A stretch of 61,418 nucleotides of DNA, taken from positions 1 to 61,418 of the forward strand of contig JAALKR010000010.1 of assembly GCA_011087955.1 (NCBI GenBank). The letters are read 5' to 3'. This document shows positions 5,698 through 46,305 of this stretch, one piece after another (position 1 is the stretch's first letter; each line of letters opens with the position of its first letter). The DNA comes from Oligoflexia bacterium. GTDB lineage: Bacteria > Bdellovibrionota > UBA1018 > CAIPTA01 > JAALKR01. Under the pieces are notes generated by a model that searched no databases, had not been told where the DNA came from, and saw nothing but the letters and a program-made list of their open reading frames with translations. Both the position numbers and the translations under genes were made by a program.

Positions 5698-5733
5698 AAA
5701 AAATTAATAGATCGATAAATGTGGTTTATTCGC

Positions 5734-6558: not shown

Positions 6559-6585
6559 CGTTTGCTCCTACTTTCTACAGGCTTT

Positions 6586-7245: not shown

Positions 7246-7247
7246 TA

Positions 7248-8855: not shown

Positions 8856-8866
8856 TATTGCTCTCC

Positions 8867-9922: not shown

Positions 9923-9940
9923 AAGCCCTCTAGTCCTTTC

Positions 9941-10816: not shown

Positions 10817-10854
10817 AGGGTAGATTTAGCAGCATCCTTACGGAAGAGCAATCC

Positions 10855-31426: not shown

Positions 31427-31692
31427 GGGGTTGAGTTGCCTCTTTATCCTTTTCTATCTTTGTATGTGAAACCCACAGTCCATTAGAATACAAATATATG
31501 TGTCATTTCAAGCACTTAGTTTTATGCGGCGCAATGTTAGTAAAGGCTAGGAGCGCGACGAATTATTTATAATTATAAATAGTGTTAATAACTTCATAGG
31601 TAACTTAGTGAATAGAGGGCTGGGGTGGAAAAAATAACCGCGTAAAGTTATAATATACTAGGATGGAATTCAGTGGAAGGTCTTTATAGTTA

Positions 31693-31719
31693 TAAAGGTT
31701 TTGGAAAGAATTCCGACGA
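31693..31719 (+). promoter_or_regulatory. sigma28 (FliA)-like promoter upstream of flp
   Basis: TAAA-N15-TCCGACGA. Confidence 0.6.
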
Positions 31720-31756
31720 GTAAACAGATGACTAGATCGGGGCCTGGGGACAGGAA

Positions 31757-31945
31757 ATGAAACCGCAACTGCATAATAGCCTCAAAAATTTTATACGAGA
31801 AGAGTCTGGACAGACTACGACGGAGTACATCCTCATTCTCGCTGTTGTCGTGACGATGATCATGCAGTTTAAAGCCAAGTTCAAAAAGATCCTCGAAGGT
31901 CTACTTGGTAAAGTCGACGAACAAACCGATGACATCTTTGAATAG
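31757..31945 (+). CDS. flp: Flp/Fap major pilin
   Basis: 62 aa; EESG|QTTTEYILILAVVV (G|XXXXEY prepilin motif). Confidence 0.93.
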   Translation: MKPQLHNSLKNFIREESGQTTTEYILILAVVVTMIMQFKAKFKKILEGLLGKVDEQTDDIFE

Positions 31946-32029
31946 AGCCCACGTAGGCGCTATCTGCTCTGGTAGTCACGGCGCTTTGCGTCTATAATAT
32001 AGCTACAGTACACAAACTTTTTTACCCTT

Positions 32030-32329
32030 ATGGAAGAGGCGATGCTTGAGGAAGGTACACGAAAACCAGTAGCAAAAATTTGTCCAAAGCGAAGGCGTAA
32101 ACAGTCTGGACAAGCAATGATCGAGTACATACTAATCTTTGTCGTTAGCCTTGTATTTGCGCGCTATGTATTCTTTCATGAAGAATTTGGCATCAATGCC
32201 ATGTTAGATCGCATGATGATGCGTGTGGGGACCAATCTAGAGCAAAATTTAAAAACAGGAACGGCTCCAGGAGGAGTTGGCAAAGGTTCTTTAGCACCGT
32301 TTGCGGGAACGAATACTTGGAACAACTAA
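32030..32329 (+). CDS. Flp/TadE-like minor pilin
   Basis: SG|QAMIEYILIF. Confidence 0.85.
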   Translation: MEEAMLEEGTRKPVAKICPKRRRKQSGQAMIEYILIFVVSLVFARYVFFHEEFGINAMLDRMMMRVGTNLEQNLKTGTAPGGVGKGSLAPFAGTNTWNN

Positions 32330-32859
32330 AGGCCATAGCTATAGCTGTCGCAATCTTTGGAGGCGTCTATGATCTCTTCACGCAGCGTATTCCCAATTGG
32401 TGGACTTTTCCTGCTATGGGAGTTGGTTTGATTGCTAGCGCTTGGATGGGCTTTAGCGAAGGCAATGTCTTAGTTGCACTCGGGCTATCCACCCTGGGAA
32501 TTATCGTCGGATTTGTGCTCTACTTCCCCATGTATGCGCTGGGGATCATGGGCGCAGGGGATGTTAAGTTGCTGATGGCTATCGGCTCCTTTGGTGGACC
32601 TAAATTTGCCTTTTATGTCGCCCTATTCTCGATTATTGTTGGCGGAATCTATGCACTGATTGACGTAATTATGGTCGGACGATTTGTTCCTTTCATGAGA
32701 GAGTTATTTCGTTGGTTGCGTCCAGTCTTTTTCCGAGGCTATTTACGGGAAAATCCAGATATCGATAAAACGCGAAAATTTTCCTTTGGAGCATCCGTTG
32801 CTATCGCGACTGGGATTGTTATTTGGCTAGAGCATTCAGGAGGGTTGCAATGGCTTTGA
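32317..32859 (+). CDS. cpaA: Prepilin peptidase CpaA/TadV (A24)
   Basis: YDLFTQRIPN, MGAGDVKL. Confidence 0.93.
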   Translation: MEQLKAIAIAVAIFGGVYDLFTQRIPNWWTFPAMGVGLIASAWMGFSEGNVLVALGLSTLGIIVGFVLYFPMYALGIMGAGDVKLLMAIGSFGGPKFAFYVALFSIIVGGIYALIDVIMVGRFVPFMRELFRWLRPVFFRGYLRENPDIDKTRKFSFGASVAIATGIVIWLEHSGGLQWL

Positions 32860-33197
32860 TGAGATCTATGGTGATTCGAAATCGTCGACGTGAAGTTCAA
32901 TGTGGGACTCAACGCAGAGGAAGGTTGAGCTCGGAGTCTGGCCAGTCTATGGTCGAGTATATTCTGATGACCGGTGTGATCATTTTGATCGTGCTAGCGG
33001 TGTTCACATTGATGGAGAATACACAATATATCTACAAAAATCTCACGTCGCCGTTAGTGGCATTCCTCAAGTACAATTATAAATACGGTGATCAGAATGC
33101 ACTGGGTTGGGATGAAACGGGCGGCCCACGACGACATATTCAAATTTCACGACCAGCGGCAGGGGAAACCTTTCGTATCTTTATTCCACAGAATTAG
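32850..33197 (+). CDS. TadE-like pseudopilin
   Basis: SG|QSMVEYILM; start uncertain (ATGs at 32850, 32859, 32868). Confidence 0.83.
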   Translation: MALMRSMVIRNRRREVQCGTQRRGRLSSESGQSMVEYILMTGVIILIVLAVFTLMENTQYIYKNLTSPLVAFLKYNYKYGDQNALGWDETGGPRRHIQISRPAAGETFRIFIPQN

Positions 33198-33232
33198 GTT
33201 GGGCAAACGACCGATGTGCAGCGAGCAAAAAA

Positions 33233-33910
33233 ATGACTAACGCGAGACAGACAAAAACTAGAAGGAAGTTTCTGGAGGAATCTGGACAGACCTTCATGGA
33301 GTTCCTAATTGTTGTGATGGTGATTATTGCTCTGATTTTCGCATTTATTCAGATTTGCTGGGCAATGGCTTGGGGCCACTATATTCATTACTCGACTTAT
33401 ATGGCTGCGCGGGCTTACCTTTCTGGCCAACAGAATCAAGGCCAACAGATCGAGGCCGCTTCAAGCGTCCTAAGATCGATGGTGAAGCGTCCTGGTACTG
33501 ACGAGGATCTCCTGGGTAATATAGCGCCGTCTAGAGTCGGAGACGCGCGAGACATCCCTGGAGATGAGCCTGTGGCGGGCAGCTTTATCGGCACACACCC
33601 CGTAGCGGAGGGTTTTGGTCTAGACCAACGATTTTTCTCTTGGGCTGAAGGAGTTCAGTATAATTTTAAATTCAAGCTATTTATTCTTCCTCTAGCCTGG
33701 TGGTTGAAGCGGGACGAGGGGAAGATAATTGAGATTGGCCCTCAAGGCAGTAGTCAGAGTGTAGTCTGGACTGGCTTTATCGACTTAGCTTCTGATGCCT
33801 TCCTTGGTCGGGATAGTACGAACGAAGAATGCCGCACTTTTTTGTTGAGACTTTCTGGCCTAAACCCCAGGAGCGATCGCACCGATTACATATATGATAA
33901 CGGGTGTTAG
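33233..33910 (+). CDS. TadE-like pseudopilin
   Basis: SG|QTFMEFLIV, YMAAR, C-terminal DNGC. Confidence 0.87.
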   Translation: MTNARQTKTRRKFLEESGQTFMEFLIVVMVIIALIFAFIQICWAMAWGHYIHYSTYMAARAYLSGQQNQGQQIEAASSVLRSMVKRPGTDEDLLGNIAPSRVGDARDIPGDEPVAGSFIGTHPVAEGFGLDQRFFSWAEGVQYNFKFKLFILPLAWWLKRDEGKIIEIGPQGSSQSVVWTGFIDLASDAFLGRDSTNEECRTFLLRLSGLNPRSDRTDYIYDNGC

Positions 33911-33932
33911 ATGCGAGGATAACAGGTGCTAG

Positions 33933-34424
33933 ATGCATATATTTCGTAAACGAATAAAATTTATAAAGAATGAGCGAGGGCAAGCTCTCCTGGAGTTTAT
34001 TTTAATGCTGCCCATGGTTTTAGCCTTCTTCTGGTACACGCTGAAGATTAATGTGGCAATCAATAAATCGATCGTTGCGCAAAAGCACCTGCGTTCGCAG
34101 CTTTTTATGAAATTACTCAATCATCGAGATTATCCGGTTATCGATGAGTACCAACGGAACCCCTCGGACCGTTCCGCCTATTTTATGGGTGTTTCCAACG
34201 AAATTACGACGACAATAGGGTCATTTTCTCCTGCACCGACCGTTCAGTTGGGTATCGGAACGAGGCCAAAAACATTTCCAGGATCACGTGATGAGCCCGG
34301 TGAAGCCGAAGCTGGTTGGCTTCGCCAGAATGTACGTATTCGCAGTGCCTACGGTATTTGCACTTCGCGCAAGCCATTTGCCGATAACACATTGGGCTCC
34401 TTCTGTGGGGAGGTTAATCCATGA
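33933..34424 (+). CDS. TadE-like pseudopilin
   Basis: RG|QALLEFILMLP. Confidence 0.87.
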   Translation: MHIFRKRIKFIKNERGQALLEFILMLPMVLAFFWYTLKINVAINKSIVAQKHLRSQLFMKLLNHRDYPVIDEYQRNPSDRSAYFMGVSNEITTTIGSFSPAPTVQLGIGTRPKTFPGSRDEPGEAEAGWLRQNVRIRSAYGICTSRKPFADNTLGSFCGEVNP

Positions 34425-35311
34425 ATAATCGCGCGTTTACAATGTCATTTATTTTAGCAGCCTTCGCTGTCATGATGGTGCACTCCTATGTGGAGTCCAA
34501 TCTGGAGCGACAAAAGGAAAAATTTGGGCAGATGGTTACTGTCGTCGTTGCTAAAGAAAATATTAAAGAGCTAGAGACACTTGACCAAATTAATCTTCAC
34601 ATCATTGAGATGCCGAAAAAATTTGTGCAACCAGGTGCGGGCAGGAAATTAAAAGATTTCGAAGGTGGTCTTGCAATTGCGCCCATTCAAAAAGGTGAAC
34701 AAATAACTAGAACAAAAGTGACAGTGATTGGCTCGCGAACAGGATTATCACGACAAGTGACTGTTGGTCGTCGAGCGATAACGGTTCGGGTTGATGATGT
34801 GAAAGGTGTGAATCGACTGATTAAGCCTGGCGATCGAGTCGATGTAATTTCCATTATTGACTTAGGTAAAGGTGATCCATTTTTGGTTGAAGCAAAAACA
34901 GTGTTGCAAGATGTATTGGTTTTATCGACGGGTAAATTAATTACAAATACAGTGCCTGGAATTCTAGAAGCGGATCCGTATCGGAGAGGAAAACGGGCTA
35001 AGAAGGTTTCCAATTTGACGGAATATACAAGTTATAACTCCGTGACTCTCGAAGTAGACCCGATCGAAATGCAGCAATTGTTTTTGATTGAGCAACGTCT
35101 TGGTGGTGTGTATCTTGCGCTACGAAATAACGACGATAACGCGAAAGAGAATCTGGATACAGCCACAGTTCGTGAAATCCTCGGAAAGAATTCAAAGTTA
35201 GCGCGCGGCTCAGCCCGTGGCCAACAGGACGCTGCTCGAAAGCGCGCTTTAGCGAGCCCTGGTGGAGCTCGTGGTAGAGGCTTCCAGCCAACGAATCCGC
35301 GTACTCGTTAA
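34421..35311 (+). CDS. cpaB: Flp pilus assembly protein CpaB/RcpC (SAF domain)
   Basis: VVVAKENI, GRRAITV, LIKPGDRVDVI, TVLQDVLVL, VTLEV, LALRN. Confidence 0.93.
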   Translation: MNNRAFTMSFILAAFAVMMVHSYVESNLERQKEKFGQMVTVVVAKENIKELETLDQINLHIIEMPKKFVQPGAGRKLKDFEGGLAIAPIQKGEQITRTKVTVIGSRTGLSRQVTVGRRAITVRVDDVKGVNRLIKPGDRVDVISIIDLGKGDPFLVEAKTVLQDVLVLSTGKLITNTVPGILEADPYRRGKRAKKVSNLTEYTSYNSVTLEVDPIEMQQLFLIEQRLGGVYLALRNNDDNAKENLDTATVREILGKNSKLARGSARGQQDAARKRALASPGGARGRGFQPTNPRTR

Positions 35312-35411
35312 TATTTGTACCTGTTGCCGTGAAAAGGCTCACGTAGCGATGAGAAAACTAACAGCGCAAGTGGTCGAAATCACCAAAAAAATCAAAAGAG
35401 CTTAGCCGTTT

Positions 35412-37001
35412 TTGATAACGTTATATATGGGGTATTTCTCGCAAAGCCGCAATATTCAAAGCTGCACTATTTGGATCACGTTCGTGGCAGTCTTTGCCGC
35501 GTTCTTCTATGGCATGCTTGCTTCGGCACAAATTGCTCCGAAGGAAGATGATAACGACGAGGTGCGAGAAATTTCCGTTGGCTCTTTAGACACGATCGAA
35601 TTTGACTTTCAGCCGAGTAAAGTCGACCCAGTCAAAAAGGGAATTTTGCGCATTGAACGAATTGCCACGGAACTTGCAGTGCAAATCATTCCGGTTAAGA
35701 AGGGTGTGACGGACGTTGTAATCTACGACTTGCAAGGTAAGGTTCGCCGTAAGGTTAAGTATATTGTCACGGCTACGGATTTATCGCTCCAAGTTACACA
35801 AATGCGTCGCTTGCTCGATACTGTTGAAGGACTAACGATTGCTTCCGTAGGCGACAAGATTGTAATTGATGGTGAACTTGTCGTTCCCAAAGATCTTGAT
35901 CGAGTCCTACGTGTAGTAGAAGCTTTCGGTGGCTGTAAAGGGAATAATATTTGTCTCGTGCAACTTTCTAAAGTTTCCCAAAGGGCGATCGGAAAAAGAA
36001 TCCAAGACGAAATTAATCGGCAGCCTGGTTCGGTGAACGTAACGGTGCGTGTGGCAAACGATACTTTCTTTCTGGAAGGAGTGGTGGACTCAGAAGCTGA
36101 TAAAACTAGAGCCGAAGACATCGCAAAGACGTACGTGCCGGAAGTATTGGTTTCTCAATCTGTAGCTCAAGGCGTTCTGAAAGAAATCAAGAAGCAAGCG
36201 ATTCGCAATTTGATCGATGTAAATGAAACACCTCCACCGCCTCCACCGAAGACCGTTCGAGTAACCTTCCATTTTGTGGAGATCGCCAAGGAATATTTCA
36301 ACATCGCCTTCCTGAAGTGGGCACCTACGATTAGTGAGGATGCGGGTTTTAGGTTTGGTGTGACGAACACAGGCCAAGGAGGCGCTAATTCCGACGGATC
36401 CCTAGTTGCAACTATTTCAAGTTTAATTCCACGTTTACAAAAAGGCACGAATGGTGGCTATGCACGAGTGCTCTTTTCAGCTGTAGGGATTGGCCTAGAT
36501 AAGGAGCAGATTTCCATTAGTCGGCAGGATCAAGTTCCGTTTATTGCCCAAGTTGTAAATGGAGTTCCAGTTACTCAGAGCCAGCCAGTTGGTATTTCCC
36601 TAGCCGTTAAGCCTGAAATCCAAGATAACGACATAGTTTTCTTGCGCGATGTGGAGTTTAATTTTTCTGCAATTTCTGGCGCCGGTGCCGGTTCCCAGCC
36701 GGCGGTTCGTAATACGGCGATTAAGAACCAAGTCTCAGTGCGCTCCGGTGATTCCGCAGTATTAGGTGGTCTTATTTCCAATAATATGGCGCTTGATGTG
36801 GATAAGGATCCAGAGCAAGCAGGTGAAGGTGCTGGCAGTGCGATCTTTACTCTTCTACGGTCAAAAGCGTTCCGCCGGAATAAATCACAGTTTGTTGTTT
36901 TCATCACTCCGCAGATTATTTCTGATGCTTCGAAAGGCACGGAAGATATTAAGAAGAAAATTATCGGAAATAAGAAACGTAAACGGAGAATATATCGCTA
37001 G
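35412..37001 (+). CDS. cpaC: Tad secretin CpaC/RcpA with BON-like domain
   Basis: Position between cpaB and cpaF; N-terminal pilus-formation domain, BON-like FFLEGVVDS, secretin tail SAVLGGL...LLRSKAF...FVVFITP; start uncertain. Confidence 0.88.
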   Translation: MITLYMGYFSQSRNIQSCTIWITFVAVFAAFFYGMLASAQIAPKEDDNDEVREISVGSLDTIEFDFQPSKVDPVKKGILRIERIATELAVQIIPVKKGVTDVVIYDLQGKVRRKVKYIVTATDLSLQVTQMRRLLDTVEGLTIASVGDKIVIDGELVVPKDLDRVLRVVEAFGGCKGNNICLVQLSKVSQRAIGKRIQDEINRQPGSVNVTVRVANDTFFLEGVVDSEADKTRAEDIAKTYVPEVLVSQSVAQGVLKEIKKQAIRNLIDVNETPPPPPPKTVRVTFHFVEIAKEYFNIAFLKWAPTISEDAGFRFGVTNTGQGGANSDGSLVATISSLIPRLQKGTNGGYARVLFSAVGIGLDKEQISISRQDQVPFIAQVVNGVPVTQSQPVGISLAVKPEIQDNDIVFLRDVEFNFSAISGAGAGSQPAVRNTAIKNQVSVRSGDSAVLGGLISNNMALDVDKDPEQAGEGAGSAIFTLLRSKAFRRNKSQFVVFITPQIISDASKGTEDIKKKIIGNKKRKRRIYR

Positions 37002-37021
37002 GAAGCGTAGAAGGAGCTAGG

Positions 37022-39319
37022 ATGGCTGGACATATTATCGCAATAGTAGGTGGAAAGGGCGGCGTTGGAAAATCCGTTTTTTCTGCTAACCTTGCGCTTG
37101 CCTTTCTTAAAGAATTTGGCATGCGTTCCCTTCTGATTGACCAAGACATGTCCGCTTGCGGTGACCAGAATCTTATCTTTGGTATTAAGCAGGGAAGATT
37201 GTTAGTTGATGCTGTAAACCACGTAGGCCACTACGACACAAATGCAATGCAGAAGCTCGTTACTCAGCACGCAAACGGCTTGCATGTGATCTCTGCTCCG
37301 AAAACCTCTAGTGAGGCCTCTAAAATTTCTCCGGACGCCTTGGGAAAGTTCTATAAAGGTGTACGCAATCTCTATCCGATTGTTGTTGTAGATTGTGGTT
37401 CGCGCTTAGACACCTGTACTATAAAGGCAATGGAATTTGCCACGAGTATCTTTGTTGTGACTATTCCAGATATTCTCGTTATGCACCAGACGATGCGTAT
37501 GGTTCAAGATATTAACGAGAATATGTTCCCAAAAGAGATTATTCAAGTGGTGGTGAATCGTTTTTCTGGCAATGCAGCTGTAAATTCATCGACGATTCAA
37601 AGAAATTTAGGGTGCCCAATTTTGGGAGTAATCCCGGATGACCCGCAGGCAAATAATACGGCTCTTTCTCAAGGTAACCCAGTGTTAGTTTCTGTGCCGA
37701 ATGCTTCTTCGACTAGAGGTTATCACGAGTTGGTACGGAAAATTCAGCAGCAGAATCTATTGACAAAGTTAGCTCAGGTGAAAAAGCCAAGGAGGCTTGG
37801 AAAGAAAGCAGCCACTGAAGTTAATGCGGCAATTGCAGAAAAAAGTGTGCCTACAGAAAAATCTAGTCTCCGTGGAGGCTCTACCGATGTGATTGATACA
37901 CGCTCCGCCTTAAAACTTCGTGTACACAAAGAACTCGTTGAACGGGTTGACTTTAAGAAAGAAGGTTCTTCAGAGGCAGAAAAGGCTCGACTACGTGAGA
38001 AATGCAAATCAACCGTTGTTGACGTTTTAAATGGGGAAGATATCTCAGTCGTTGCTAAAGGTAGGGAAGAAATGCAGCGCTTGGTGAAGGAAATTCTTGA
38101 CGAGGCATTGGGGCTTGGTGCGCTCGAAGACCTACTTGCGGACAGAGCAGTGAACGAGATCATGGTGATTGCGCGAGATCGAATTTATTGTGAACGAGCT
38201 GGTAAAAATTTTCTCTCCAAAACCACCTTTTCATCTGATCAACAGCTGATGAACGTGATTGAGCGGATTGTGATGCCTTTAGGTCGAAGAATCGATGAGA
38301 AGTCTCCTCATGTGGATGCTCGTCTTCCCGATGGCTCTCGAGTGCATGCCATCATTCCTCCACTTGCGATCAAGGGGCCGACGCTTACCATTCGGAAATT
38401 TCCATCGGAACGCTTGACGTGGAAGCATTTAGTGGGGTTTGGGTCAATGACCACAGAGATTGCAGATTTTTTGCGAGTCTGTGTAGAGGCGCGACTCAAT
38501 ATTATCGTAGCCGGGGGTACTGGTTCTGGTAAGACAACCTTGTTGAACGTTTTATCTAACTTTATTCCGACAGGCGAACGGATTATCACCGTAGAGGATG
38601 CGGCAGAGCTGGATTTGGGACAGGATCACGTGGTCCGCCTTGAAACTCGTCCAGCCAATATTGAAGGCGAAGGAGAAGTTTCGATTCGTGAGTTAGTGAA
38701 GCAAACATTGCGAATGAAACCGGATCGAGTGATCGTAGGTGAGTGTCGTGCCGGTGAAGCGCTCGATATGTTACAGGCGATGAACACTGGTCACGATGGT
38801 TCCCTAACAACAGTCCATGCCAATACTCCGAGAGATACGATTGCCCGACTAGAAACTCTTGTAATGATGGCAGGGATGGGGTTGCCAGTTAAGGCAATTC
38901 GGGAGCAAATTTCTGGCGCAGTAAACTTGATTGTACAGCAGTCGCGACTTTCCGATGGTTCCCGTAAAATCACTCATATTACCGAAGTTGTTGGGATGCA
39001 GGGAGAGACAGTAGCTTTGCAGGATGTATTTATTCATGAGCAATCCGGATTAGATAAGCGGCGAAAGATTATTGGTAAGTTCGTACCTACTGGCTTTATT
39101 CCAAAATTTGTGGAGCAAATGGAAGCCAAAGGCTTGAAAATTCCACGTTCATTATTTTCTAATACTCCAGAGCAGAACAAGGAGGGGAAACCAAAACCAG
39201 GTGCTAAGCCAGTCGTCAAATCGGATGCAAGACGAGGAATTAAGCCAGGTGCTAAGCCCGACTCCAAGCCTCGTGCCGCTGGTAGCGGTACACCACCAGC
39301 GAAAGCAGGAGGCATGTAG
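37022..39319 (+). CDS. tadA: CpaE/TadZ (MinD-like)-CpaF/TadA ATPase fusion
   Basis: N-terminal GGKGGVGKS deviant Walker A; C-terminal GGTGSGKTT, VEDAAEL, RMKPDRVIVGECR, MNTGHDGS. Confidence 0.95.
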   Translation: MAGHIIAIVGGKGGVGKSVFSANLALAFLKEFGMRSLLIDQDMSACGDQNLIFGIKQGRLLVDAVNHVGHYDTNAMQKLVTQHANGLHVISAPKTSSEASKISPDALGKFYKGVRNLYPIVVVDCGSRLDTCTIKAMEFATSIFVVTIPDILVMHQTMRMVQDINENMFPKEIIQVVVNRFSGNAAVNSSTIQRNLGCPILGVIPDDPQANNTALSQGNPVLVSVPNASSTRGYHELVRKIQQQNLLTKLAQVKKPRRLGKKAATEVNAAIAEKSVPTEKSSLRGGSTDVIDTRSALKLRVHKELVERVDFKKEGSSEAEKARLREKCKSTVVDVLNGEDISVVAKGREEMQRLVKEILDEALGLGALEDLLADRAVNEIMVIARDRIYCERAGKNFLSKTTFSSDQQLMNVIERIVMPLGRRIDEKSPHVDARLPDGSRVHAIIPPLAIKGPTLTIRKFPSERLTWKHLVGFGSMTTEIADFLRVCVEARLNIIVAGGTGSGKTTLLNVLSNFIPTGERIITVEDAAELDLGQDHVVRLETRPANIEGEGEVSIRELVKQTLRMKPDRVIVGECRAGEALDMLQAMNTGHDGSLTTVHANTPRDTIARLETLVMMAGMGLPVKAIREQISGAVNLIVQQSRLSDGSRKITHITEVVGMQGETVALQDVFIHEQSGLDKRRKIIGKFVPTGFIPKFVEQMEAKGLKIPRSLFSNTPEQNKEGKPKPGAKPVVKSDARRGIKPGAKPDSKPRAAGSGTPPAKAGGM

Positions 39320-39322
39320 GTT

Positions 39323-40201
39323 ATGTTAAGCGATTTAATGGAGCCGATAACACTAGCTATAATCGTCGGGATTATTGTTTTTGTAGTTTCTTATATGCAC
39401 GCTCGTCGTTTTCTAGATTGGCTACGCTGGAAATCGATTGGCGCAAGAGATGACATTGTAGAGACATTGGAAAAAATGTTTATCGAGATCTCTCCCAATA
39501 AAGTTCTTCTCTATATGACTCTCTCAGCGATTGTTCCAGGCATTTTAGTGTTCTTACTAATTTTGCCACAATTCATTCCAGCACTTTGCTTTGGATTGGT
39601 GATTGCTATCTTTGGCTGGCATATTCCAAAGATAGTTGTCCGGAGAATGTTTGCGCAGCGAATGAATAGATTCAATCTACAAATGATTGATGGCTTGAGC
39701 TTGATGGCCAACGGTATGAAGTCCGGCCTATCCATTATTCAGGCTATGGGTCTTGTAAAGGAGGAGATGCCAGACCCATTGTCGAAAGAGTTTGATTATG
39801 TTTTACAACAGAACCGTCTTGGGGTGAGCGTGGAAGAGGCTTTCCAAAATCTTGCTAAGCGCATTCCTTCCGAAGATGTAAATATGTTTGTCACCTCTAT
39901 CATCATCCTCAAAGAAACAGGTGGAAATCTGGCCGAGACATTCGAGACAATTGTGCACGTTATTCGAGAGCGTTTAAAGGTGCAGCAGAAGATTGCTGCC
40001 ATGGTTGCCCAAGGTGTCGCTCAGGGGGTGATTGTATTCTGTATGCCTTTTGGCTTAGGTTTGATGTTCTACCTAAGTGACCCCAAGTTTATTGAGCCTC
40101 TTTTTTCGACTCCCCTGGGATGGCTGATATCAGCCGGTATTCTCACACTCCAATTTGTAGGCGGATTTGTGATTCTAAAAATTGTACAAATTAAAGTGTA
40201 G
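39323..40201 (+). CDS. tadB: Tad inner-membrane platform protein TadB (T2SSF family)
   Basis: MANGMKSGLS, PLSKEF, ETGGNLAE, IRER. Confidence 0.93.
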   Translation: MLSDLMEPITLAIIVGIIVFVVSYMHARRFLDWLRWKSIGARDDIVETLEKMFIEISPNKVLLYMTLSAIVPGILVFLLILPQFIPALCFGLVIAIFGWHIPKIVVRRMFAQRMNRFNLQMIDGLSLMANGMKSGLSIIQAMGLVKEEMPDPLSKEFDYVLQQNRLGVSVEEAFQNLAKRIPSEDVNMFVTSIIILKETGGNLAETFETIVHVIRERLKVQQKIAAMVAQGVAQGVIVFCMPFGLGLMFYLSDPKFIEPLFSTPLGWLISAGILTLQFVGGFVILKIVQIKV

Positions 40202-40237
40202 AAGTGGTAGGAGCGCAGGGATTTTTTTGCTTATCAT

Positions 40238-40264
40238 TAAGCACCCTATTTGGGATGCCGAAAA
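40238..40264 (+). promoter_or_regulatory. sigma28 (FliA)-like promoter upstream of the YD-repeat gene
   Basis: TAAG-N15-GCCGAAAA. Confidence 0.7.
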
Positions 40265-40282
40265 GCATATGTGAGGTTAGAA

Positions 40283-42091
40283 ATGACTGCTAATCGAGGA
40301 ATGAGCACCAATCAAAGACCAAGATTCATTGGAACACTAATTTTTGGAATAGCTCTGACGACCTTTCTGGTAGCGAATCTGGCGGACGCCCTAGTTGCAA
40401 TCACCAACGGAAATTATTTTACTGGCTTCGTAGATTTGAATCACCCGAATGCAGGACCGGGGTTTCAGTTAAAGCTAGAGCGTACTTATAACAGCCGCTC
40501 TCAATATAACGGCATTTTTGGATACGGTTGGGGTACTGAGTTTGAATCGTTTTTGGTGCCGGCTGCAGATGGTTCGGTGGTCATTCAGGAGTCTGGTGGC
40601 GGTGAGAAGACTCGTTTTACCCCTAAGGGTTTTTCAAATGGGGATATGAACAAGTTTATTACCGAGCTCATCAAAGCTAAGCAGAAAAAACAAGGTGGAG
40701 GATTCAATGCGCAAGCCTATACGGCTAAGTTGAAAAAGGACGCAGATTTCCGTGATGAGGAAGGTAGAACACTTGGCGTTATGCCAATGGTAAAAACTGG
40801 GACGAAGCTGTACTCCACTCAGCGTGGGGATAAGCAGGTAGTAACTGTGATCAAAGGTGGGTTTGTACGTGAATTTGGCACGGGCAAAATGGTTTATTTC
40901 ACGAAAAGAGCAAGCGTAAGAGATTTCGGTGTGGAAGTGTCTCGGCAGCGTGTGGTGAAGGGTGTATACAAGATCACTCGATTTGTGGACAAAGTACAAG
41001 GAGTCGACCTTAGTTTCAAATATGATGAAACAGGGAAGCTTGTGGCGATTACGGACGGAGGTAAGCAGACTTTGCGTTTTGTAACAAATACAGATGGCAA
41101 GGTCAAACAGGCTACGGATCACTTAGGCCGTGCTTCTACGTATAAGTATTGCCGTTCAAGGCGCTATAATAGTGCGCAAAAGTGCTCTGCTGGGGATTTG
41201 GTCTATTCTAAAGACGGTGCGGGTAATGAATTTATCTATGAGTATGACAATATTCATAACTTAACAAAAATCAAGTACTCAGATGGCTCTTTTGAGGAAA
41301 TCTCTTATTATCCAGCTAGCCCTCCAGGTGAGGGTGGTGCCAAAGAAGTGAAGCTTCGTCGTGGCGTGAAGATGAAGTACACCTATTGGTCAGATCCAAA
41401 AGATAAGCGTATGCATTTCAAAACAACGGTGGAGACGACCTATCGAAGTGGCCGGAAAACTATCGCTTCCTACGAATATTGGCGAAAGCGTCGCTCCGAT
41501 GGCACAGTCTATAAGCAAAAAATGGCGACCAATATTAATGGCGATAAAACAGTTACGACCTACAATGAATGCTGTGGGCAACCACTAGAAATCAAACGCT
41601 CCAGTGGTACGACTACTTTTGCGTACTACGATGATACTGGGTTGCCAAAATTAAAGAATTCGCCAACGGAAAAAGTAGGTTGGAAATACTCGAAACAGTT
41701 TCATGGTAAGGTTACTCAAGTGGCAGTGTTAGATAAGACTAAGGGTCAAAAGAAGGCACTGATTACAAAGTATCAATACAATGCAAAAGGCAATTTAGTG
41801 AGAGCCAAGACTTCTGACGGTAGAGGCGTTGGATTGCTTTATGATAGTAAAAACCGAATTAAGGCAATGATCGATCAAGAAAAGCGCAAAATCACCTTTA
41901 CATATAACAGCCTTTCGAAACCAGTAAAAATCACGCAGCAAGGAGTTGGAGGCATCACAGTAGAGTACGATGGCAAGGGTAGTATCAAAGAAGTAAACTC
42001 AAAAGGTGGACGTCAAATCGCTCTCAGCGTGACAGCAGCCTTTCAGAACCTCTTAGAGATTATCAAGCCTGCTGGAGTTCAGCCGTTATAA
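40283..42091 (+). CDS. Secreted YD/RHS-repeat protein (DUF6531-like N-terminus), Bd0109-like
   Basis: GAGG RBS, signal peptide, LERTYNSR...GIFGYGW, repeated YD/YN units; no RHS core motif. Confidence 0.88.
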   Translation: MTANRGMSTNQRPRFIGTLIFGIALTTFLVANLADALVAITNGNYFTGFVDLNHPNAGPGFQLKLERTYNSRSQYNGIFGYGWGTEFESFLVPAADGSVVIQESGGGEKTRFTPKGFSNGDMNKFITELIKAKQKKQGGGFNAQAYTAKLKKDADFRDEEGRTLGVMPMVKTGTKLYSTQRGDKQVVTVIKGGFVREFGTGKMVYFTKRASVRDFGVEVSRQRVVKGVYKITRFVDKVQGVDLSFKYDETGKLVAITDGGKQTLRFVTNTDGKVKQATDHLGRASTYKYCRSRRYNSAQKCSAGDLVYSKDGAGNEFIYEYDNIHNLTKIKYSDGSFEEISYYPASPPGEGGAKEVKLRRGVKMKYTYWSDPKDKRMHFKTTVETTYRSGRKTIASYEYWRKRRSDGTVYKQKMATNINGDKTVTTYNECCGQPLEIKRSSGTTTFAYYDDTGLPKLKNSPTEKVGWKYSKQFHGKVTQVAVLDKTKGQKKALITKYQYNAKGNLVRAKTSDGRGVGLLYDSKNRIKAMIDQEKRKITFTYNSLSKPVKITQQGVGGITVEYDGKGSIKEVNSKGGRQIALSVTAAFQNLLEIIKPAGVQPL

Positions 42092-42226
42092 GGGAAATGA
42101 GCGTTATAAGGAAAATATCCTGCTAAATGCACTTTTTAGCTGTACAAGAATTAGGCAGATACACCTAAACTTGTCAGTTCGATTTTTAAATTTCCGTCTA
42201 AGTTGTTGGTTCTATTAGTGTGTGAG

Positions 42227-42242
42227 TGGCATATGCTTTGCA
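42227..42242 (+). promoter_or_regulatory. sigma54 -24/-12 promoter
   Basis: TGGCAT-ATGCT-TTGCA, 32 nt upstream of ATG 42275. Confidence 0.75.
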
Positions 42243-42274
42243 GTATGAAGAGCAATAGAACTAGGAGAAAAGAT

Positions 42275-42523
42275 ATGCGTATTATTAAGATCGTGGCTTT
42301 ATTGATTTTTTTATCAGCAGTTCCTGCATTGGCAGTTGACAGTAGTGGACTAGGGCCTAAGGAAGACTTTGAAGCGTCTTGGGAAACTTGTTGCAATGCT
42401 GAAGTTGCTGCGAGTTCGGCTCAATGTAATTTTTGGGCAGACTCCAAAGCTGCAGAGCTTTTAGGAACACGCGCCCCTACAGAAGACGAGCGCGAGAAAG
42501 TATTGAACACTCGAGGCGAGTAA
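42275..42523 (+). CDS. Small secreted protein (82 aa, three Cys)
   Basis: AGGAGA RBS, Sec signal MRIIKIVALLIFLSAVPALA, own promoter and terminator. Confidence 0.8.
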   Translation: MRIIKIVALLIFLSAVPALAVDSSGLGPKEDFEASWETCCNAEVAASSAQCNFWADSKAAELLGTRAPTEDEREKVLNTRGE

Positions 42524-42574
42524 TTGCCTAATATTGCCGACTAAGTTTTAAACTAAATCCTAGTTCATGAGAAT

Positions 42575-42605
42575 AGGGAAGCCGACTATTACGGCTTCCC
42601 TTTTT
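42575..42605 (+). terminator. Rho-independent terminator
   Basis: AGGGAAGCCG-ACTATTA-CGGCTTCCCT followed by TTTT. Confidence 0.88.
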
Positions 42606-42787
42606 GCATATATGAGCTGCCTTTATTGAGATGGGATGAGATGAGAGTGCTTATAGTAGGCGCACGAGTGAACTATTGGACGGGACACTGTTGCTTCTTT
42701 GAGGAACTGTCTCTCTCTTAAGTCGCTGTTTAAAAAATAGTCAGTTGGGGTAGGGGGGGAAGTTTAACGTACACCGGAATTTTTATT

Positions 42788-42800
42788 TAAATCATTGATT
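42788..42800 (-). promoter_or_regulatory. IHF-binding consensus site
   Basis: Minus strand AATCAA-TGAT-TTA matches WATCAA-N4-TTR, 40 nt upstream of a sigma54 -24 box. Confidence 0.55.
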
Positions 42801-42840
42801 TCATAGGGCTATCTAAGGTTGCTCCCAAAAGGAAACACCT

Positions 42841-42856
42841 TGGCAAGATAGTTGCA
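42841..42856 (+). promoter_or_regulatory. sigma54 -24/-12 promoter
   Basis: TGGCAA-GATAG-TTGCA. Confidence 0.7.
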
Positions 42857-42946
42857 ACATAAGGGTAGTGAGCGATCAGTGCCTTGAAAAAGGTACTACA
42901 CGAGAGTGAGTTGTCACAGTTATTGTAGTTGAGAGAGGTAGTAGCG

Positions 42947-43219
42947 ATGAAGCGGTTGTTGTTAATAGTGCTAGCAGTAATGTCGTTGCAGTCGGAGATC
43001 GTGTTGGCCAAGGGTAAGTTACCCCTTGACCAAGCTATGATTGAAGAGGCACAACTGGCGGTTGGCATAGGTCAAAAGCGATTACTGTCAGAGTATACTG
43101 GCAAGAGCTTAGGGCCGAACAAGCGTACGGATGTTAAGTGTATTGATGAGGTTGCAAGCGCTCTAGGCGTTCGTAAGGCTGATATACATAGCGACATTAC
43201 GACTAAAGATGGGATTTAA
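42947..43219 (+). CDS. Small secreted protein (90 aa)
   Basis: GAGAGG RBS, signal peptide MKRLLLIVLAVMSLQSEIVLA. Confidence 0.75.
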   Translation: MKRLLLIVLAVMSLQSEIVLAKGKLPLDQAMIEEAQLAVGIGQKRLLSEYTGKSLGPNKRTDVKCIDEVASALGVRKADIHSDITTKDGI

Positions 43220-43497
43220 TTCTGTTCTTTCGGGGCTTTCGAAGGAGCAGGATTAATCCACATCGCCAATTTTCTGCGAGCCGTATTGAAAGCTTCTGGG
43301 ATTTTATGCCGTAGTTTGTCCGTTTGAGATTCAAACGTATTTTTCAATTGTTGTACAATGGCGCCCGTCCCTGTGCGCTCCACCACATGTTCCATATGAC
43401 CCTGTAGAGACTTACCCTCAAATCGCCAAGGACTCATTACTAGTGTTGCAGCGAAAATCATACCCAAAAAAAATAACATCCTAGCCAGTCTCAACAT
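43216..43497 (-). CDS. Small hypothetical membrane-anchored protein
   Basis: 93 aa with an N-terminal hydrophobic helix; overlaps the end of the upstream receiver gene. Confidence 0.65.
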   Translation of the reverse strand: MLRLARMLFFLGMIFAATLVMSPWRFEGKSLQGHMEHVVERTGTGAIVQQLKNTFESQTDKLRHKIPEAFNTARRKLAMWINPAPSKAPKEQN

Positions 43498-43861
43498 TGA
43501 ATTCCTCCAGGTATTTCTCCACTGTAAAATAAAACTCTGCGTCTGAAAATGGTGCAGTCAAAAGGTCACGGGCTCCAGATCGAATCACCTGCTCGCGAAT
43601 TACGTTTGTCGTGATATCAGTAAAAAGCACCACCTTGCGCTTGCTATCTACCGTCACTATACGCTTACAAGTCTCATAACCCGGTTCATCCATCAATTGG
43701 AGATCGATGATGGTGAGGTGAGGATCAAAGTACGTCAAATTTGGTAGAATTTTTTCACCTTCATGCATGACTTGATACTCAATGTTCATGTCGAGTAAAA
43801 GGTTGCAGAGTCGCTTTTCATAGTGTTTGCGCTTTGTAATGATAAGAGCCTTAAAGAGCAT
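43481..43861 (-). CDS. Stand-alone atypical receiver-domain protein
   Basis: IIDLQLMDEPGYETCKRI, VVLFT, GARDLLTAPF receiver pattern. Confidence 0.8.
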   Translation of the reverse strand: MLFKALIITKRKHYEKRLCNLLLDMNIEYQVMHEGEKILPNLTYFDPHLTIIDLQLMDEPGYETCKRIVTVDSKRKVVLFTDITTNVIREQVIRSGARDLLTAPFSDAEFYFTVEKYLEEFNVETG

Positions 43862-43921: not shown

Positions 43922-45193
43922 TCAGTTAGCTAGTTTTGAAATAACAACGGTTTGAATTGCACGATCAGATGATTTAAATACCTTAAATTTTAAATTGCCA
44001 AAGAAAAGCTCGTCTCCGGTACTCGGAATTCGGTTAAATTGCTGGAGGAGGAACCCGGAAAGCGTCTCGTAATCGCCTTTTGGCAGGTTTGCCCCGAGTC
44101 TTTCGTTAAGGTCATCAATCTCAATGGTTACATTCACCAAATGGGCATTCTCAGAAATTCGGTGGAAGAGAAAAGTATTTTCATCAAATTCGTCGGAGAG
44201 ATTTCCTACCACTTCCTCGAGCACGTCTTCTTTCGTAATAACGCCAACTGCACCGCCATATTCATCAACGACTATGAGCATGACTGACTCTTTAGCGTTC
44301 ATCTCTGAGATTAAGGCTTCAAGTTGTTGGTGTTCCGATGCGTAAACTGCTTCGCGCATATGGTTCTCTACTGTATCTTCCAAGTTGTCTGCCGCGAAGA
44401 GGTCCATAAAATGCAAAATACCTACAATGTTATCGACTCGTTCGTCATAAACCGGAATGCGAGAGTGACGGAGAGTCTCAAACATTTCAATTGCATCTTT
44501 GAGTGCTGCATTGACCTCAATCGCATCCACATTCACCAGTGGCACCATAGCTTTACGAACTGACTGAGAATAAAACTCTAAAATATTGCGAATCATGCGT
44601 TTTTGCGTAAAGCGAATTTCTGAGCCAGAGTCTTTATCCCCAAGGAGTGAGAAGAGTTGGTCTCGAGCTAAACGGCGAGCTGTGATTGTATCTGGCGCCC
44701 CCATACCAGCCAACCGGGAGACTTGTGCGGTATAAAAGGAAAGAATTTTTACGATCGGTGAAAAGAGACCGCTAATCAGAATTAGAGAATAGGCACAAGT
44801 CACAGACCAACGAACAGAAGCCGAACGGGCTACCACCTTTGGGATGGAATCACAAAGGAGGAGGATTGTTGGAGTCAATACGGCAACCACTCGCCAGTCG
44901 CCCTCGTTACCTAAATACAGCATGGCATAAATAGTAGTTAGAGTAGTGGTGATGGCGATCGATAAATTCGTACCGAATTGTGTAATAGTCAATAGGTTCT
45001 CGATGGAATCGAGCAAAATCAGGGCAAAAGAAGCCCCGGAGCTTCCCTCTCTACGGAGGCGCTTTAGTTGGTGGCGGTCTGCAGAGATGAGTGCGATTTC
45101 CGTGCCTGTAAAGAAGGCGGCCGAAACCATGCCAAGAGCTGCAAAGACTAGCAGGATAGCTGGGGAGGAGAAAAGTTCAATGAACCCACTCAT
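43922..45193 (-). CDS. CNNM/HlyC-CorC family protein (DUF21 + CBS + CorC)
   Basis: SAAFFTGTEIAL, HSRIPVY, VVDEYGG, EDVLEEVVG, YETLSGF. Confidence 0.93.
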   Translation of the reverse strand: MSGFIELFSSPAILLVFAALGMVSAAFFTGTEIALISADRHQLKRLRREGSSGASFALILLDSIENLLTITQFGTNLSIAITTTLTTIYAMLYLGNEGDWRVVAVLTPTILLLCDSIPKVVARSASVRWSVTCAYSLILISGLFSPIVKILSFYTAQVSRLAGMGAPDTITARRLARDQLFSLLGDKDSGSEIRFTQKRMIRNILEFYSQSVRKAMVPLVNVDAIEVNAALKDAIEMFETLRHSRIPVYDERVDNIVGILHFMDLFAADNLEDTVENHMREAVYASEHQQLEALISEMNAKESVMLIVVDEYGGAVGVITKEDVLEEVVGNLSDEFDENTFLFHRISENAHLVNVTIEIDDLNERLGANLPKGDYETLSGFLLQQFNRIPSTGDELFFGNLKFKVFKSSDRAIQTVVISKLAN

Positions 45194-46191: not shown

Positions 46192-46205
46192 TACCGGGCT
46201 CTCTT

Positions 46206-46268
46206 GCTCTTTATGAGAGGCATACTCCTCTTACGGAAGAGCACATTCCTCTTATGAAAAGGCACAAG
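46206..46268. repeat. Degenerate 21-bp tandem repeat x3
   Basis: GCTCTTTATGAGAGGCATACT / CCTCTTACGGAAGAGCACATT / CCTCTTATGAAAAGGCACAAG. Confidence 0.6.
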
Positions 46269-46305
46269 AACCCTACTAGGGTAAGTTTCTAAAGAGTCTG
46301 GTTCT

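Follow-up and report, generated by a model that had tools for sequence, protein, structure and literature searches.

The region between positions 31693 and 43219 of the window (the whole stretch of DNA analysed, 61,418 nucleotides) is probably the orthologue of bd0102-bd0119 of Bdellovibrio bacteriovorus: a Kil-like Tad (type IVb/c) pilus operon, followed by a Bd0109-family YD protein and small secreted proteins. This Tad-YD-small-protein system is already known and is phylum-wide, and the locus described here is the copy of an uncultured relative. It is mainly useful as a comparison point for the Bdellovibrio "hit" switch, which is still unexplained.

The pilus genes and their promoter

All the Tad genes are on the plus strand, as assessed from the ORF list and from Pfam and NCBIfam searches. 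Flp and four further prepilin-like genes, with an A24 prepilin peptidase gene embedded among them, are followed by CpaB, a secretin, a TadZ-TadA fusion and one TadB-like gene, and then by a 602-aa YD/RHS protein and two small signal-peptide proteins. The genes named in the original prediction from flp to the small proteins, including the embedded peptidase, are thus present where it had placed them.

31626-31654 (+): sigma-70-like -35/-10 pair, TGGAAA-17-TATAAT (10 of 12 matches)
31693-31719 (+): sigma-28 (FliA)-like promoter motif, TAAAG-N15-CCGA, 64 nt upstream of flp
31757-31945 (+): flp, Flp major pilin, 62 aa (PF16982, E 3.1e-10; G-QTTT-EY motif)
32030-32329 (+): Flp-type prepilin-like protein, 99 aa (G-QAMI-EY motif)
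32317-32859 (+): CpaA/TadV prepilin peptidase, 180 aa, among the pilin genes (PF01478, E 3.4e-18)
32823-33197 (+): prepilin-like protein, at most 124 aa, true start uncertain (G-QSMV-EY motif)
33233-33910 (+): TadE-like minor pilin, 225 aa (PF07811 TadE at 21.1 bits, just below the cut-off of 22.9; G-QTFM-EF motif)
33933-34424 (+): TadE-like minor pilin, 163 aa (G-QALL-EF motif)
34421-35311 (+): CpaB/RcpC (PF16976, E 3.2e-22; TIGR03177, 149.5 bits, cut-off 71)
35412-37001 (+): CpaC/RcpA secretin with BON domain (PF00263, E 9.4e-15; PF04972)
37022-39319 (+): fused TadZ-like (MinD/ParA) and TadA/CpaF ATPase, 765 aa (PF01656, PF00437)
39323-40201 (+): single TadB-like platform protein, 292 aa (T2SSF PF00482, E 3.3e-21)
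40250-42091 (+): Bd0109-family YD/RHS half-shell protein with signal peptide (PF05593 and PF20148); the database start at 40283 gives 602 aa
42275-42523 (+): small secreted acidic protein, 82 aa, mature form about 62 aa with 3 Cys (Shine-Dalgarno site, signal peptide)
42575-42601 (+): intrinsic terminator-like hairpin at the putative operon end (10-bp stem, 7 G-C pairs, T-run)
42947-43219 (+): second small secreted protein, 90 aa, 1 Cys, paralogue-like (signal peptide, LGPNK...C motif)

In all five prepilins the G-xxxx-E[YF] motif is preceded by S/R-G-Q; the Pfam search assigned the 99-aa protein to no family. The 765-aa protein is a TadZ-TadA fusion, with PF01656 on residues 6-214, the T2SSE domain PF00437 on residues 364-640 (E 1.7e-61) and a TIGR03819 score of 313.9 bits. 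Against an HD100-like Bdellovibrio locus (L085), identity is 40% for Flp (to flp1), 22% and 21% for the 225- and 163-aa minor pilins (to ORFs of 213 and 168 aa), 35% for CpaB (Bd0113 position), 31% for the secretin (Bd0112 position), 48% over 701 aa for TadZ-TadA (to a 739-aa ORF at the Bd0111 position) and 47% for the TadB-like protein (Bd0110 position).

The gene order flp ... tadB, YD on one strand recurs in dozens of Bdellovibrionota loci. Among 80 loci, many of them broken by contig ends, matches were found for tadB in 69, tadZA in 65 (full length), cpaC in 60, cpaB in 53 and flp in 40, for cpaA at the equivalent position in 35, and for the 163-aa, 99-aa (equivalent position) and 32823-33197 prepilins in 46, 33 and 30, respectively. 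Of 401 genomes sampled across the phylum, 381 were matched by a Bd0109-family profile, most of them with a single copy. The synteny looked for across Bdellovibrionota therefore exists, and the architecture is the standard one for most of the phylum, not the uncharacterised "divergent" version that had been proposed; small secreted neighbours of Bd0109 homologues had also been described already (PMC4267844, PMC10469934).

Position 31693, where the region of interest begins, is the start of the TAAAG of the sigma-28-like motif. In 15 of 41 loci, this one included, such a motif is found in the 150 nt before flp, as opposed to 35 of 3200 control windows, and it also precedes flp1 in the HD100-like locus. 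FliA is encoded in the genome (G000), and FliA dependence of flp1 promoters has been published (PMC5430801). With 15 of 41 loci, the motif is not universal. Near relatives carry TTGACA-17-TAAACT about 100 nt upstream of flp. A generic sigma-70 scan returned 11 sites against 19.9 +/- 4.9 in shuffled sequences, and was thus not enriched, so that the earlier claim of readable promoters now stands on the conserved sigma-28-like motif and not on the scan. We propose that co-transcription of 12 genes, from flp to the gene for the 82-aa protein, would start from a sigma-28-type promoter, perhaps with a sigma-70-type one as well, and would end at the hairpin (-21.5 kcal/mol with its flanks). The in-locus A24 peptidase would cut the five prepilins, Flp and four minor ones, at G/xxxxE[YF], and the fused TadZ-TadA ATPase, the one TadB-like platform protein, CpaB and the secretin would assemble them.

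The YD protein and its small secreted neighbours

The YD protein is orthologous to Bd0109, as had been predicted. The two were reciprocal single matches (E 5e-74 and 7e-74), the Bd0109 sequence coming from a genome (G255) picked out by its exact match to the published bd0108 primer, and they align end to end with 31% identity over 580 aa and an identical signal-peptide cleavage context. In L085, a 550-aa YD ORF adjoins an ORF of 101 aa that has the published ASA-DE cleavage site. Moreover, M902_1312, a published Bd0109 orthologue (PMC5430801, supplement), is match P0108, with 37% identity and 94% coverage. In the tree, the YD protein of the locus falls with members of its order in a 99* clade, and f21 makes up a clade of its own. 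Unlike Bd0109, the protein has a vicinal CC and a C-x10-C pair.

The structure model of the YD protein (pLDDT 84.9) matched Rhs cores, with a VIA Z of 26.1 to 8qjb_A (rmsd 8.7 over 407 residues) and a Z of 25.6 to Tse5, 8cp6_B (rmsd 2.9 over 317 residues). Residues 37-466 align to Tse5 residues 48-419, about the first half of the Rhs shell. A DPxG[LW] autoprotease motif was looked for in the protein and is absent, and, according to both Pfam and the model, the C-terminus is a single helix right behind the repeats, with no extra domain. Presumably, the protein is exported by its Sec signal and forms about the N-terminal half of an Rhs shell devoid of protease or toxin.

That small secreted genes should be positionally conserved behind the YD gene was borne out. 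A signal-peptide ORF of 58-134 aa starting at most 450 nt from the YD stop is found on the plus strand in 60 of 72 loci, this one included, and on the minus strand in 7 of 72; the signal peptides were assigned by an in-house hydrophobicity rule, not by a trained predictor, and among the 60 the one in L023 seems to be spurious. Of these 60 ORFs, 28 have the motif [VTLI]G[QPEKRMH]x1-11C, compared with 29 of 605 control ORFs, and the LGPNK...C motif of the 90-aa protein is common to the small proteins of relatives. In 35 of the 60 loci another small ORF of this kind is found within 900 nt, and 31 of these 35 second ORFs encode exactly one Cys. For the Bdellovibrio family, the first small secreted ORF is present in 26 of 30 loci and the second in 17. 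The small proteins are therefore positional counterparts of Bd0108. No homology to Bd0108 was detected by hhalign (probability 0.04%) or tblastn, hhalign likewise detected no relation to the second small protein found in the Bdellovibrio family (probability 0.25%), and with 3 or 1 Cys they do not have the CxxC of Bd0108. Any functional equivalence would thus be one of position and composition. The mature 82-aa protein has a pI of 4.4.

Complex prediction suggests, weakly, that the 82-aa protein contacts the YD protein. The ipSAE was 0.49 (runs of 0.47, 0.49 and 0.51; best control 0.00), with a partner pLDDT of at least 33, indicating a poorly folded partner, and a contact agreement of at least 26%; it passes a mark reached by 116 of 157 solved complexes and 2 of 215 mismatches, in a range (0.60 or below) in which only 18 of the 157 solved complexes, plus both passing mismatches, reached it. 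Such binding has been demonstrated experimentally only for Bd0108 and Bd0109 (PMC3818213, PMC4267844). The two small, disordered, Cys-bearing proteins would most likely bind the YD protein in the periplasm and modulate pilus activity.

Would the 82-aa protein then act like Bd0108, so that its loss leads to prey-independent growth, in a true "hit"-type life-cycle switch? The orthology of the YD protein, the conserved position of its small partner, the weak predicted contact and the published Bd0108-Bd0109 biology (PMC3818213) all point that way, yet we consider it unlikely. The small proteins show neither homology to Bd0108, nor a CxxC, nor a match to its conserved N-terminal region; Bd0108 itself is reported to be missing from many Pseudobdellovibrionaceae, epibiotic predators included (PMC11870529), and not to be conserved in Bdellovibrio sp. 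SKB1291214 (PMC5941755), and other genes also yield host-independent variants (PMC11323537). Since the organism is uncultured, its predatory lifestyle is moreover an assumption, and any role of the locus in predation or growth switching is putative.

A functional tie to the YD protein may be lacking altogether, the small ORFs being fast-evolving lineage-specific secreted proteins, or in part non-genes, between convergent units. Three of them gave 1, 0 and 0 tblastn matches among the 80 loci, with no sequence conservation beyond the order; a word-seeded protein database search with the 82-aa protein returned only itself; the 90-aa gene, located past the terminator, requires a promoter of its own; and the complex prediction is weak. 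The strand-specific position, the common N-terminal motif with its near-constant single Cys, and the Shine-Dalgarno site and signal peptides make this quite unlikely, however, as does the same arrangement in the Bdellovibrio family, for which experiments have established binding (PMC4267844). To read the YD protein as a polymorphic Rhs toxin, with immunity proteins encoded by the genes directly behind it, is highly implausible. Its RHS repeats and DUF6531, and T6SS Rhs effectors as best structural matches, would fit a toxin, but the autoprotease motif and a domain beyond the terminal helix are missing, only about the first half of the shell is covered, and the protein occurs in single copy and can be aligned over its whole length throughout the phylum, unlike toxins with variable tips. 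Export signals on the downstream proteins would also be unusual for immunity to a toxin acting in the cytoplasm.

Comparison with known systems and the flanking genes

The HD100 layout described in the original prediction is found in L085 and in the literature (PMC3818213, PMC5430801). From Flp to the YD protein and the two small secreted proteins, order and strand are the same as here, with a fused TadZ-TadA ATPase, a single TadB-like gene and, beyond the operon, a convergent receiver and a small hydrophobic protein. In contrast, no prepilin peptidase match was found in the HD100-like 19-kb locus, Bdellovibrio has one full and one trimmed Flp-type gene (PMC5430801) as opposed to three here, the first small protein has 101 aa with a CxxC rather than 82 aa with 3 Cys, and the flanking genes differ. 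The bd0109-0119 genes of Bdellovibrio have been described as a Kil-like set confined to predatory lineages (PMC8460266, PMC12075869); in PMC12075869, neither the term RHS nor, outside the reference list, Bd0109 was found.

Halobacteriovorax/Bacteriovorax loci (BMS_0182 with BMS_0183/4; M902_1312; L025 and L026) share the architecture, with two small signal-peptide genes behind the YD gene, which were noted as unrelated to Bd0108 (PMC4267844), and three TAD-associated flp genes (PMC5430801). Their YD protein is 37-38% identical to the one described here. L025 and L026 gave no tblastn match to cpaA, which is present in our locus, and about 5 kb of other genes separates their small genes from Lon.

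With canonical Tad/Cpa pili (Aggregatibacter tad, Caulobacter cpa) the locus shares the Flp G/xxxxEY motif, the A24 peptidase, RcpC/CpaB, the secretin, a TadA-type ATPase and a T2SSF platform. It differs in the fusion of TadZ to TadA, in the appended YD and small secreted proteins, and in having one platform gene instead of TadB plus TadC. The absence of tadC stated in the original prediction holds for the locus; the genome has one more single-domain T2SSF gene, on contig C34. In a second cluster of the genome, an ATPase and FHA proteins accompany a single-domain T2SSF protein; by description, this cluster recalls the two-cluster layout of the Myxococcus xanthus Kil system, a Tad-like contact-killing apparatus. 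With Rhs/YD shells (T6SS Rhs effectors, Tc BC, teneurins) the YD protein shares the YD-repeat beta spiral; it is about half as long as a full shell and has no aspartyl-protease motif, toxin tip, or PAAR or VgrG context.

Two genes converge on the operon:

43216-43497 (-): small protein with hydrophobic N-terminus, 93 aa (ORF), downstream of the receiver gene
43481-43861 (-): stand-alone, degenerate receiver-domain protein, 126 aa (PF00072, E 3.4e-10)

In the HD100-like locus the equivalent is a receiver with an overlapping 86-aa protein, to which the 93-aa protein showed no BLASTP similarity. The receiver does not have the acidic pair and conserved Lys, key residues of the phospho-acceptor pocket, and is 22% identical (E 2e-4) to the one at the same place in L085. 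Of the genes downstream of the operon, the receiver was found again in 16 loci, the two CNNM genes in 24 and 22, and Lon in 30.

Gene content of the locus and orthology with the Bdellovibrio TAD/hit system

The window corresponds to contig C8 in an assembly of 45 contigs and 1.82 Mb (completeness 88.3%, contamination 0.86%). Six DNA runs, from two studies with the label sponge metagenome, contain its DNA, and no RNA run is listed as containing it. ORF calling, together with Pfam and NCBIfam searches, revealed a compact row of plus-strand genes at 31.7-43.2 kb with intergenic gaps of -37 to +100 nt. The gene content, as originally read from the DNA, was correct.

Features of the locus, with tblastn matches among 80 related loci and tblastn identity to L085, the HD100-like TAD/hit locus of the sampled genome G255
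+ strand; Flp, 62 aa, PF16982; matched in 40/80 loci; 40% identity
+ strand; Flp-type prepilin-like protein, 99 aa; 33/80
+ strand; A24 prepilin peptidase (cpaA), PF01478, between the genes for the 99-aa and 124-aa prepilin-like proteins; 35/80
+ strand; Flp-type prepilin-like protein, 124 aa; 30/80
+ strand; two TadE-like proteins, 225 aa and 163 aa; 44/80 and 46/80; 21-22%
+ strand; CpaB, TIGR03177, 149.5 bits; 53/80; 35%
+ strand; secretin with a BON domain; 60/80; 31%
37022-39319, + strand; TadZ-like (MinD/ParA-type) domain joined to a TadA/CpaF ATPase, 765 aa; 65/80; 48% over 701 aa
+ strand; T2SSF platform protein (TadB), single gene in the locus; 69/80; 47%
40250-42091, + strand; YD/RHS protein with DUF6531 (Pfam), 602 aa from 40283; 80/80; 31% over 580 aa, E 1.5e-79
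42275-42523, + strand; 82-aa protein gene with a Shine-Dalgarno site and a signal peptide
42575-42601, + strand; G+C-rich hairpin of 10 bp with a T-run, -21.5 kcal/mol including flanks
42947-43219, + strand; 90-aa protein gene with a signal peptide, 423 nt after the 82-aa gene

A Flp prepilin with the G/xxxxEY site and a dedicated A24 peptidase, both hallmarks of canonical Tad/Flp systems, are present, and S/R-G-Q-xxx-E-[YF] was found in all five pilin-like proteins of the window. The layout, however, differs from the canonical one, in which TadZ is separate and both TadB and TadC occur: here the TadZ-like domain is fused to TadA and the locus has one T2SSF gene. The long TadZ-TadA form was matched among the related loci (65/80) and in a 739-aa ORF at the place of Bd0111 (L085 6257-8476, - strand). 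The terms TadZ and CpaE are absent from the main text of PMC8460266.

That tadC is missing proved true of the locus; elsewhere in the genome, however, another single-domain T2SSF gene lies on contig C34. This gene (308 aa) belongs to a cluster (L116, G000:C34:11000-26000, minus strand 3107-11617) that also encodes a DUF192 protein, three FHA-domain proteins, a PP2C-like protein, a cupredoxin-like protein and a 377-aa T2SSE ATPase. The cluster might supply the 'missing' TadC, or might be a second cluster of the type of Kil, the Tad-like contact-killing apparatus of Myxococcus xanthus. The presumed orthology of the window's own locus to Kil (KilA-KilT components and Tip minor-pilin complexes) derives from the assignment of the Bdellovibrio locus to Kil in the available portions of PMC8460266 and PMC12075869.

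The HD100-like locus was located by searching a published bd0108 RT-PCR primer (supplement of PMC5430801) in 401 sampled genomes of the phylum. The primer matched exactly in one genome (G255), and with one mismatch in three more of the same genus. The published Bd0110F primer had no match in the 116 genomes of the order of G001, the Bdellovibrio locus being located later at the phylum level. In L085, the primer site lies in a 101-aa ORF with a signal peptide ending ASA-DE, the end given for Bd0108 in the accessible part of PMC3818213. Beside this ORF come a 550-aa YD protein, a 291-aa T2SSF protein, the 739-aa ATPase, a secretin, CpaB, two TadE-like proteins and small Flp-type ORFs.

The window is collinear with L085 for Flp, the TadE-like minor pilins, CpaB, the secretin, the Bd0111-type ATPase and the Bd0110-type platform gene (21-48% identity per gene), and its Bd0109-orthologous YD gene directly follows the platform gene. 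Since the ATPase alignment spans 701 aa, Bd0111 is also a TadZ-TadA fusion. Searches with the YD protein gave single reciprocal matches: it hit only the Bd0109 place in G255, and Bd0109 hit only the YD gene in the window's genome. By BLASTP the two proteins share 31% identity over 580/613 residues, from the signal-peptide cleavage context through the C-terminal helix. A published table (supplement of PMC5430801) lists M902_1312 and BMS_0182 as Bd0109 orthologues, and M902_1312 is itself a match of the window's YD protein (P0108; 37% identity, 94% coverage). A quick maximum-likelihood analysis of 95 YD proteins placed the 30 Bdellovibrio-family copies in one clade (support 100) and the window, together with L063 and L002-L009, in another of 10 rows (99). 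The reciprocal matches, the alignment and the tree placement bear out the predicted orthology to Bd0109.

We conclude that the locus is a real, well-formed orthologue of the known Bdellovibrio TAD/hit system. The function first proposed for it, that of a life-cycle switch, remains putative. The HD100 locus has no peptidase, whereas the window has an A24 peptidase within the locus; with this gene and three Flp-type genes, it is closer to the Bacteriovorax/Halobacteriovorax type of Tad locus, as described in the available text of PMC5430801, than to HD100. By its Tad proteins the nearest relative is L063 (10001-11632, G004:C3; 53-69% identity), the YD gene of which is much more diverged (37% identity), with an end branch of 1.84 and a profile match that is split in two.

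Distribution across the phylum and the small secreted proteins

Related loci were collected by a pattern scan with one genome per species, giving 109 relatives and 80 loci that were kept. The genome collection holds one other sampled genome in the window's family and eight more in its order; Bdellovibrio-type genomes are related to the window at the level of the same phylum only. With the window's proteins as queries, tblastn recovered the same gene order and strand wherever a contig reaches. Among the flanking genes, lon was matched in 30/80 loci, the two CNNM genes in 24/80 and 22/80, the receiver gene in 16/80 and the three genes upstream of the locus in none (0/80). A YD-family profile (E <= 1e-20) found members in 381/401 sampled genomes of the phylum and in 324 of the 336 of high quality, mostly as one copy per genome; family f23 is an outlier, with 4/14 genomes. 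As far as gene order and profile matches go, these comparisons show that the window's architecture is standard for the phylum, and that the Tad operon is accompanied almost universally by a Bd0109-type YD protein in single copy. On four contigs labelled Bacteroidales or Bacteroidetes (L059, L060, L062 and L065), a YD-family gene (30-33% identity) was found with no tad genes; three of these copies form a clade beside those of Halobacteriovorax/Bacteriovorax (100). The occurrence of YD genes on such contigs suggests gene transfer or mis-binning.

Sequence searches with the small proteins returned little. Three small ORFs of the window had 1, 0 and 0 tblastn matches in the 80 loci. The 82-aa protein recovered only itself, among 2 candidates, from a protein collection, in a search that requires shared 5-residue words and may miss distant relatives; the best ESM Atlas score, 0.81, gave no lead. 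Small ORFs were also counted by position. The count covered the 72 loci, the window among them, in which the sequence continues for 600 nt or more beyond the YD gene. An ORF was accepted if it was on the plus strand, encoded 58-134 aa with a signal-peptide-like start (as called by a home-made hydrophobicity heuristic) and lay no more than 450 nt from the YD stop codon. Such an ORF was found in 60/72 loci, against 7/72 when the same rule was applied to the minus strand, in agreement with the positional conservation that had been predicted. One of the 60 calls, in L023, looks spurious, and the 12 loci with no such ORF include the four Bacteroidota-labelled contigs lacking tad genes.

The mature small proteins are rich in A, S, G, K, E, D, T and P. 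Those encoded by the first ORF have one cysteine in 47/60 loci, three in 9/60 and five in 2/60; a second such ORF lies within 900 nt in 35/60 loci, with one cysteine in 31 of the 35. Within the window's order, both copies carry (E/D)-V-G-(P)-x-K right after the predicted cleavage site and a cysteine 8-15 residues on, and the window's two proteins share the same LGP(K/N)K...C core after short insertions. A relaxed form of the motif occurs in 28/60 first small ORFs as against 29/605 other ORFs of those regions.

The Bdellovibrio family was represented by 30 loci, about one per genus. There, a first small secreted ORF (26/30 loci) encodes 85-133 aa, mostly with two cysteines as CxxC or similar, and is the Bd0108 family; a second (17/30) encodes exactly one cysteine. 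This second protein (L085 2984-3184, - strand; L086-L115) has the conserved pattern C-x-[KH]-R-x-x-G-x-G-x-F-A-x-T-N-P, and is encoded after Bd0108; in the literature consulted it figures only as the hypothetical gene BD_RS00505 (PMC5941755). When the mature small proteins of the window's order were compared by hhalign with both Bdellovibrio-family sets, they scored as unrelated (probabilities of 0.25% and 0.04%). The defining Bd0108 feature, a secreted protein of about 100 aa with a CxxC motif and a conserved N-terminal region, was not found in the window by sequence comparison (no tblastn match, hhalign 0.04%, no CxxC). Since the order is conserved and homology is undetectable, the small genes correspond to Bd0108 and its neighbour in position and composition but are not detectable homologues. 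Similarly, BMS_0182 has two small signal-peptide neighbours without homology to Bd0108 (accessible text of PMC4267844), and Bdellovibrionales bins have arrays of two or three secreted genes of 57-133 aa beside Bd0109/Bd0103 homologues (accessible text of PMC10469934).

These counts show that one or two very small, secreted, disordered, cysteine-bearing proteins nearly always come after the YD protein, and that the CxxC protein Bd0108 is only the Bdellovibrio-family form of its small partner. They place the hit locus, in which mutations give prey-independent growth and through which pili are coupled to the growth switch of Bdellovibrio, inside a general module of a YD protein and small proteins. 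For this window the gain is incremental, in that a published pattern is extended to an uncultured lineage. What is new is limited to the extension of a partly published phylum-wide pattern and to an observation on cysteines.

The YD protein and its possible partnership with the small proteins

An AlphaFold model of the YD protein (19-row alignment; mean pLDDT 84.9, pTM 0.75) comprises a signal/anchor helix, a beta-rich DUF6531 part, three helices (119-164), about 30 YD-repeat strands and one C-terminal helix (577-597). It matches Rhs cores, teneurins and the BC shells of Tc toxins (Foldseek E down to 1e-24) and spans about half of the solved shells. Model residues 36-578 align with residues 360-835 of 8qjb_A (VIA Z 26.1), and residues 48-419 of Tse5 align with an rmsd of 2.9 over 317 residues (VIA Z 25.6). 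Such a fold could suggest an Rhs toxin, with the small genes providing immunity. Rhs polymorphic toxins, however, carry a C-terminal DPxGL-type autoprotease motif and a variable toxin domain, whereas the YD protein has neither: no DPxG[LW] motif was found, its Pfam domains are only RHS_repeat and DUF6531, and its RHS_core score is 28.4 bits against a cut-off of 2000. With no such motif and no domain past the repeats, we rejected the toxin/immunity reading.

A partnership of the YD and small proteins has a precedent in Bd0109 and Bd0108, the binding of which is experimental according to the available portions of PMC3818213 and PMC4267844. Residues 35-602 of the YD protein and the mature 82-aa protein, both with alignments, were submitted to complex prediction together with three controls. 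The ipSAE was 0.49 (runs of 0.47, 0.49 and 0.51), against 0.00 for the best control, with a partner pLDDT of at least 33 and a contact agreement of at least 26%. The prediction, which had been put forward as a check on the locus, thus passed the mark reached by 116/157 solved complexes and 2/215 mismatches; only 18/157 solved complexes, and both passing mismatches, lie at or below 0.60. The model weakly supports a contact; the value alone is no evidence of binding. Because the prior from HD100 is favourable, the odds of binding are raised a little.

The cysteines vary along with the family. Outside the Bdellovibrio family, the vicinal Cys-Cys pair of the YD protein (Cys430/431 in the window's copy) is invariant (alignment A1) and provides the sole cysteines in 38/68 full-length copies, and the cysteine count of both small secreted proteins is odd, usually one. 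The pair coincides with an odd number in the first small protein in 51 loci and with an even number in 1, and is missing with an odd number in 2. In the Bdellovibrio family the pair is absent from 30/30 loci, and 25/26 first small proteins have an even number, mostly as CxxC. This contrast amounts essentially to a single phylogenetic event, and the pair was part of one of the two patterns with which the loci were collected. As a sequence pattern, this distribution fits intermolecular disulfides between the partners. We consider it unlikely, if conceivable, that outside the Bdellovibrio family such disulfides would tether the small proteins to the YD half-shell or to each other, making a redox-linked partner system and a redox-sensitive switch of the predatory Tad pilus, of which the CxxC of Bd0108 would be a derived, self-contained version.

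Candidate promoter elements and flanking genes

A sigma-28-like motif, T[AT]AA-N15-17-CCGA, starts at 31693, 64 nt upstream of flp. Such a motif occurs within 150 nt upstream of flp in 15/41 loci (the window included), as against 35/3200 random windows, and is also found upstream of flp1 in L085. FliA is encoded in the window's genome (273 bits; cut-off 189.6), and FliA dependence of the flp1 promoter in a heterologous system is reported in the accessible text of PMC5430801. Near relatives have in common, about 100 nt upstream of flp, the element TTGACA-17-TAAACT; its weaker counterpart in the window is TGGAAA-17-TATAAT at 31626-31654. Generic scans of the window were not above shuffles for sigma-70 promoters (11 vs 19.9) or terminators (10 vs 11.5).

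Two overlapping genes, one for a degenerate receiver and one for a 93-aa protein that is hydrophobic at its N-terminus, lie convergent to the small genes and are followed by two CNNM genes and lon. The stand-alone receiver (43481-43861, - strand) has K-R-K at the usual site of the acidic pair and Ala for the conserved Lys (T-A-P-F); these residues mark it as a probable pseudo-receiver. D-D and K-P-F are both retained by the receiver that occupies the equivalent position in the HD100-like locus. BLASTP gave no alignment of the 93-aa minus-strand protein with the 86-aa protein that L085 has in its place. The two adjacent CNNM/CBS transporter-like genes and lon (43922-48759, - strand) are syntenic in 22-30/80 related loci and had no match in the 19 kb of L085. 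In an Rfam search of the whole window, the only hit was a tmRNA gene at 60191-60545 (+ strand; RF00023, 186.6 bits); the 423 nt separating the two small genes contain no known RNA family.
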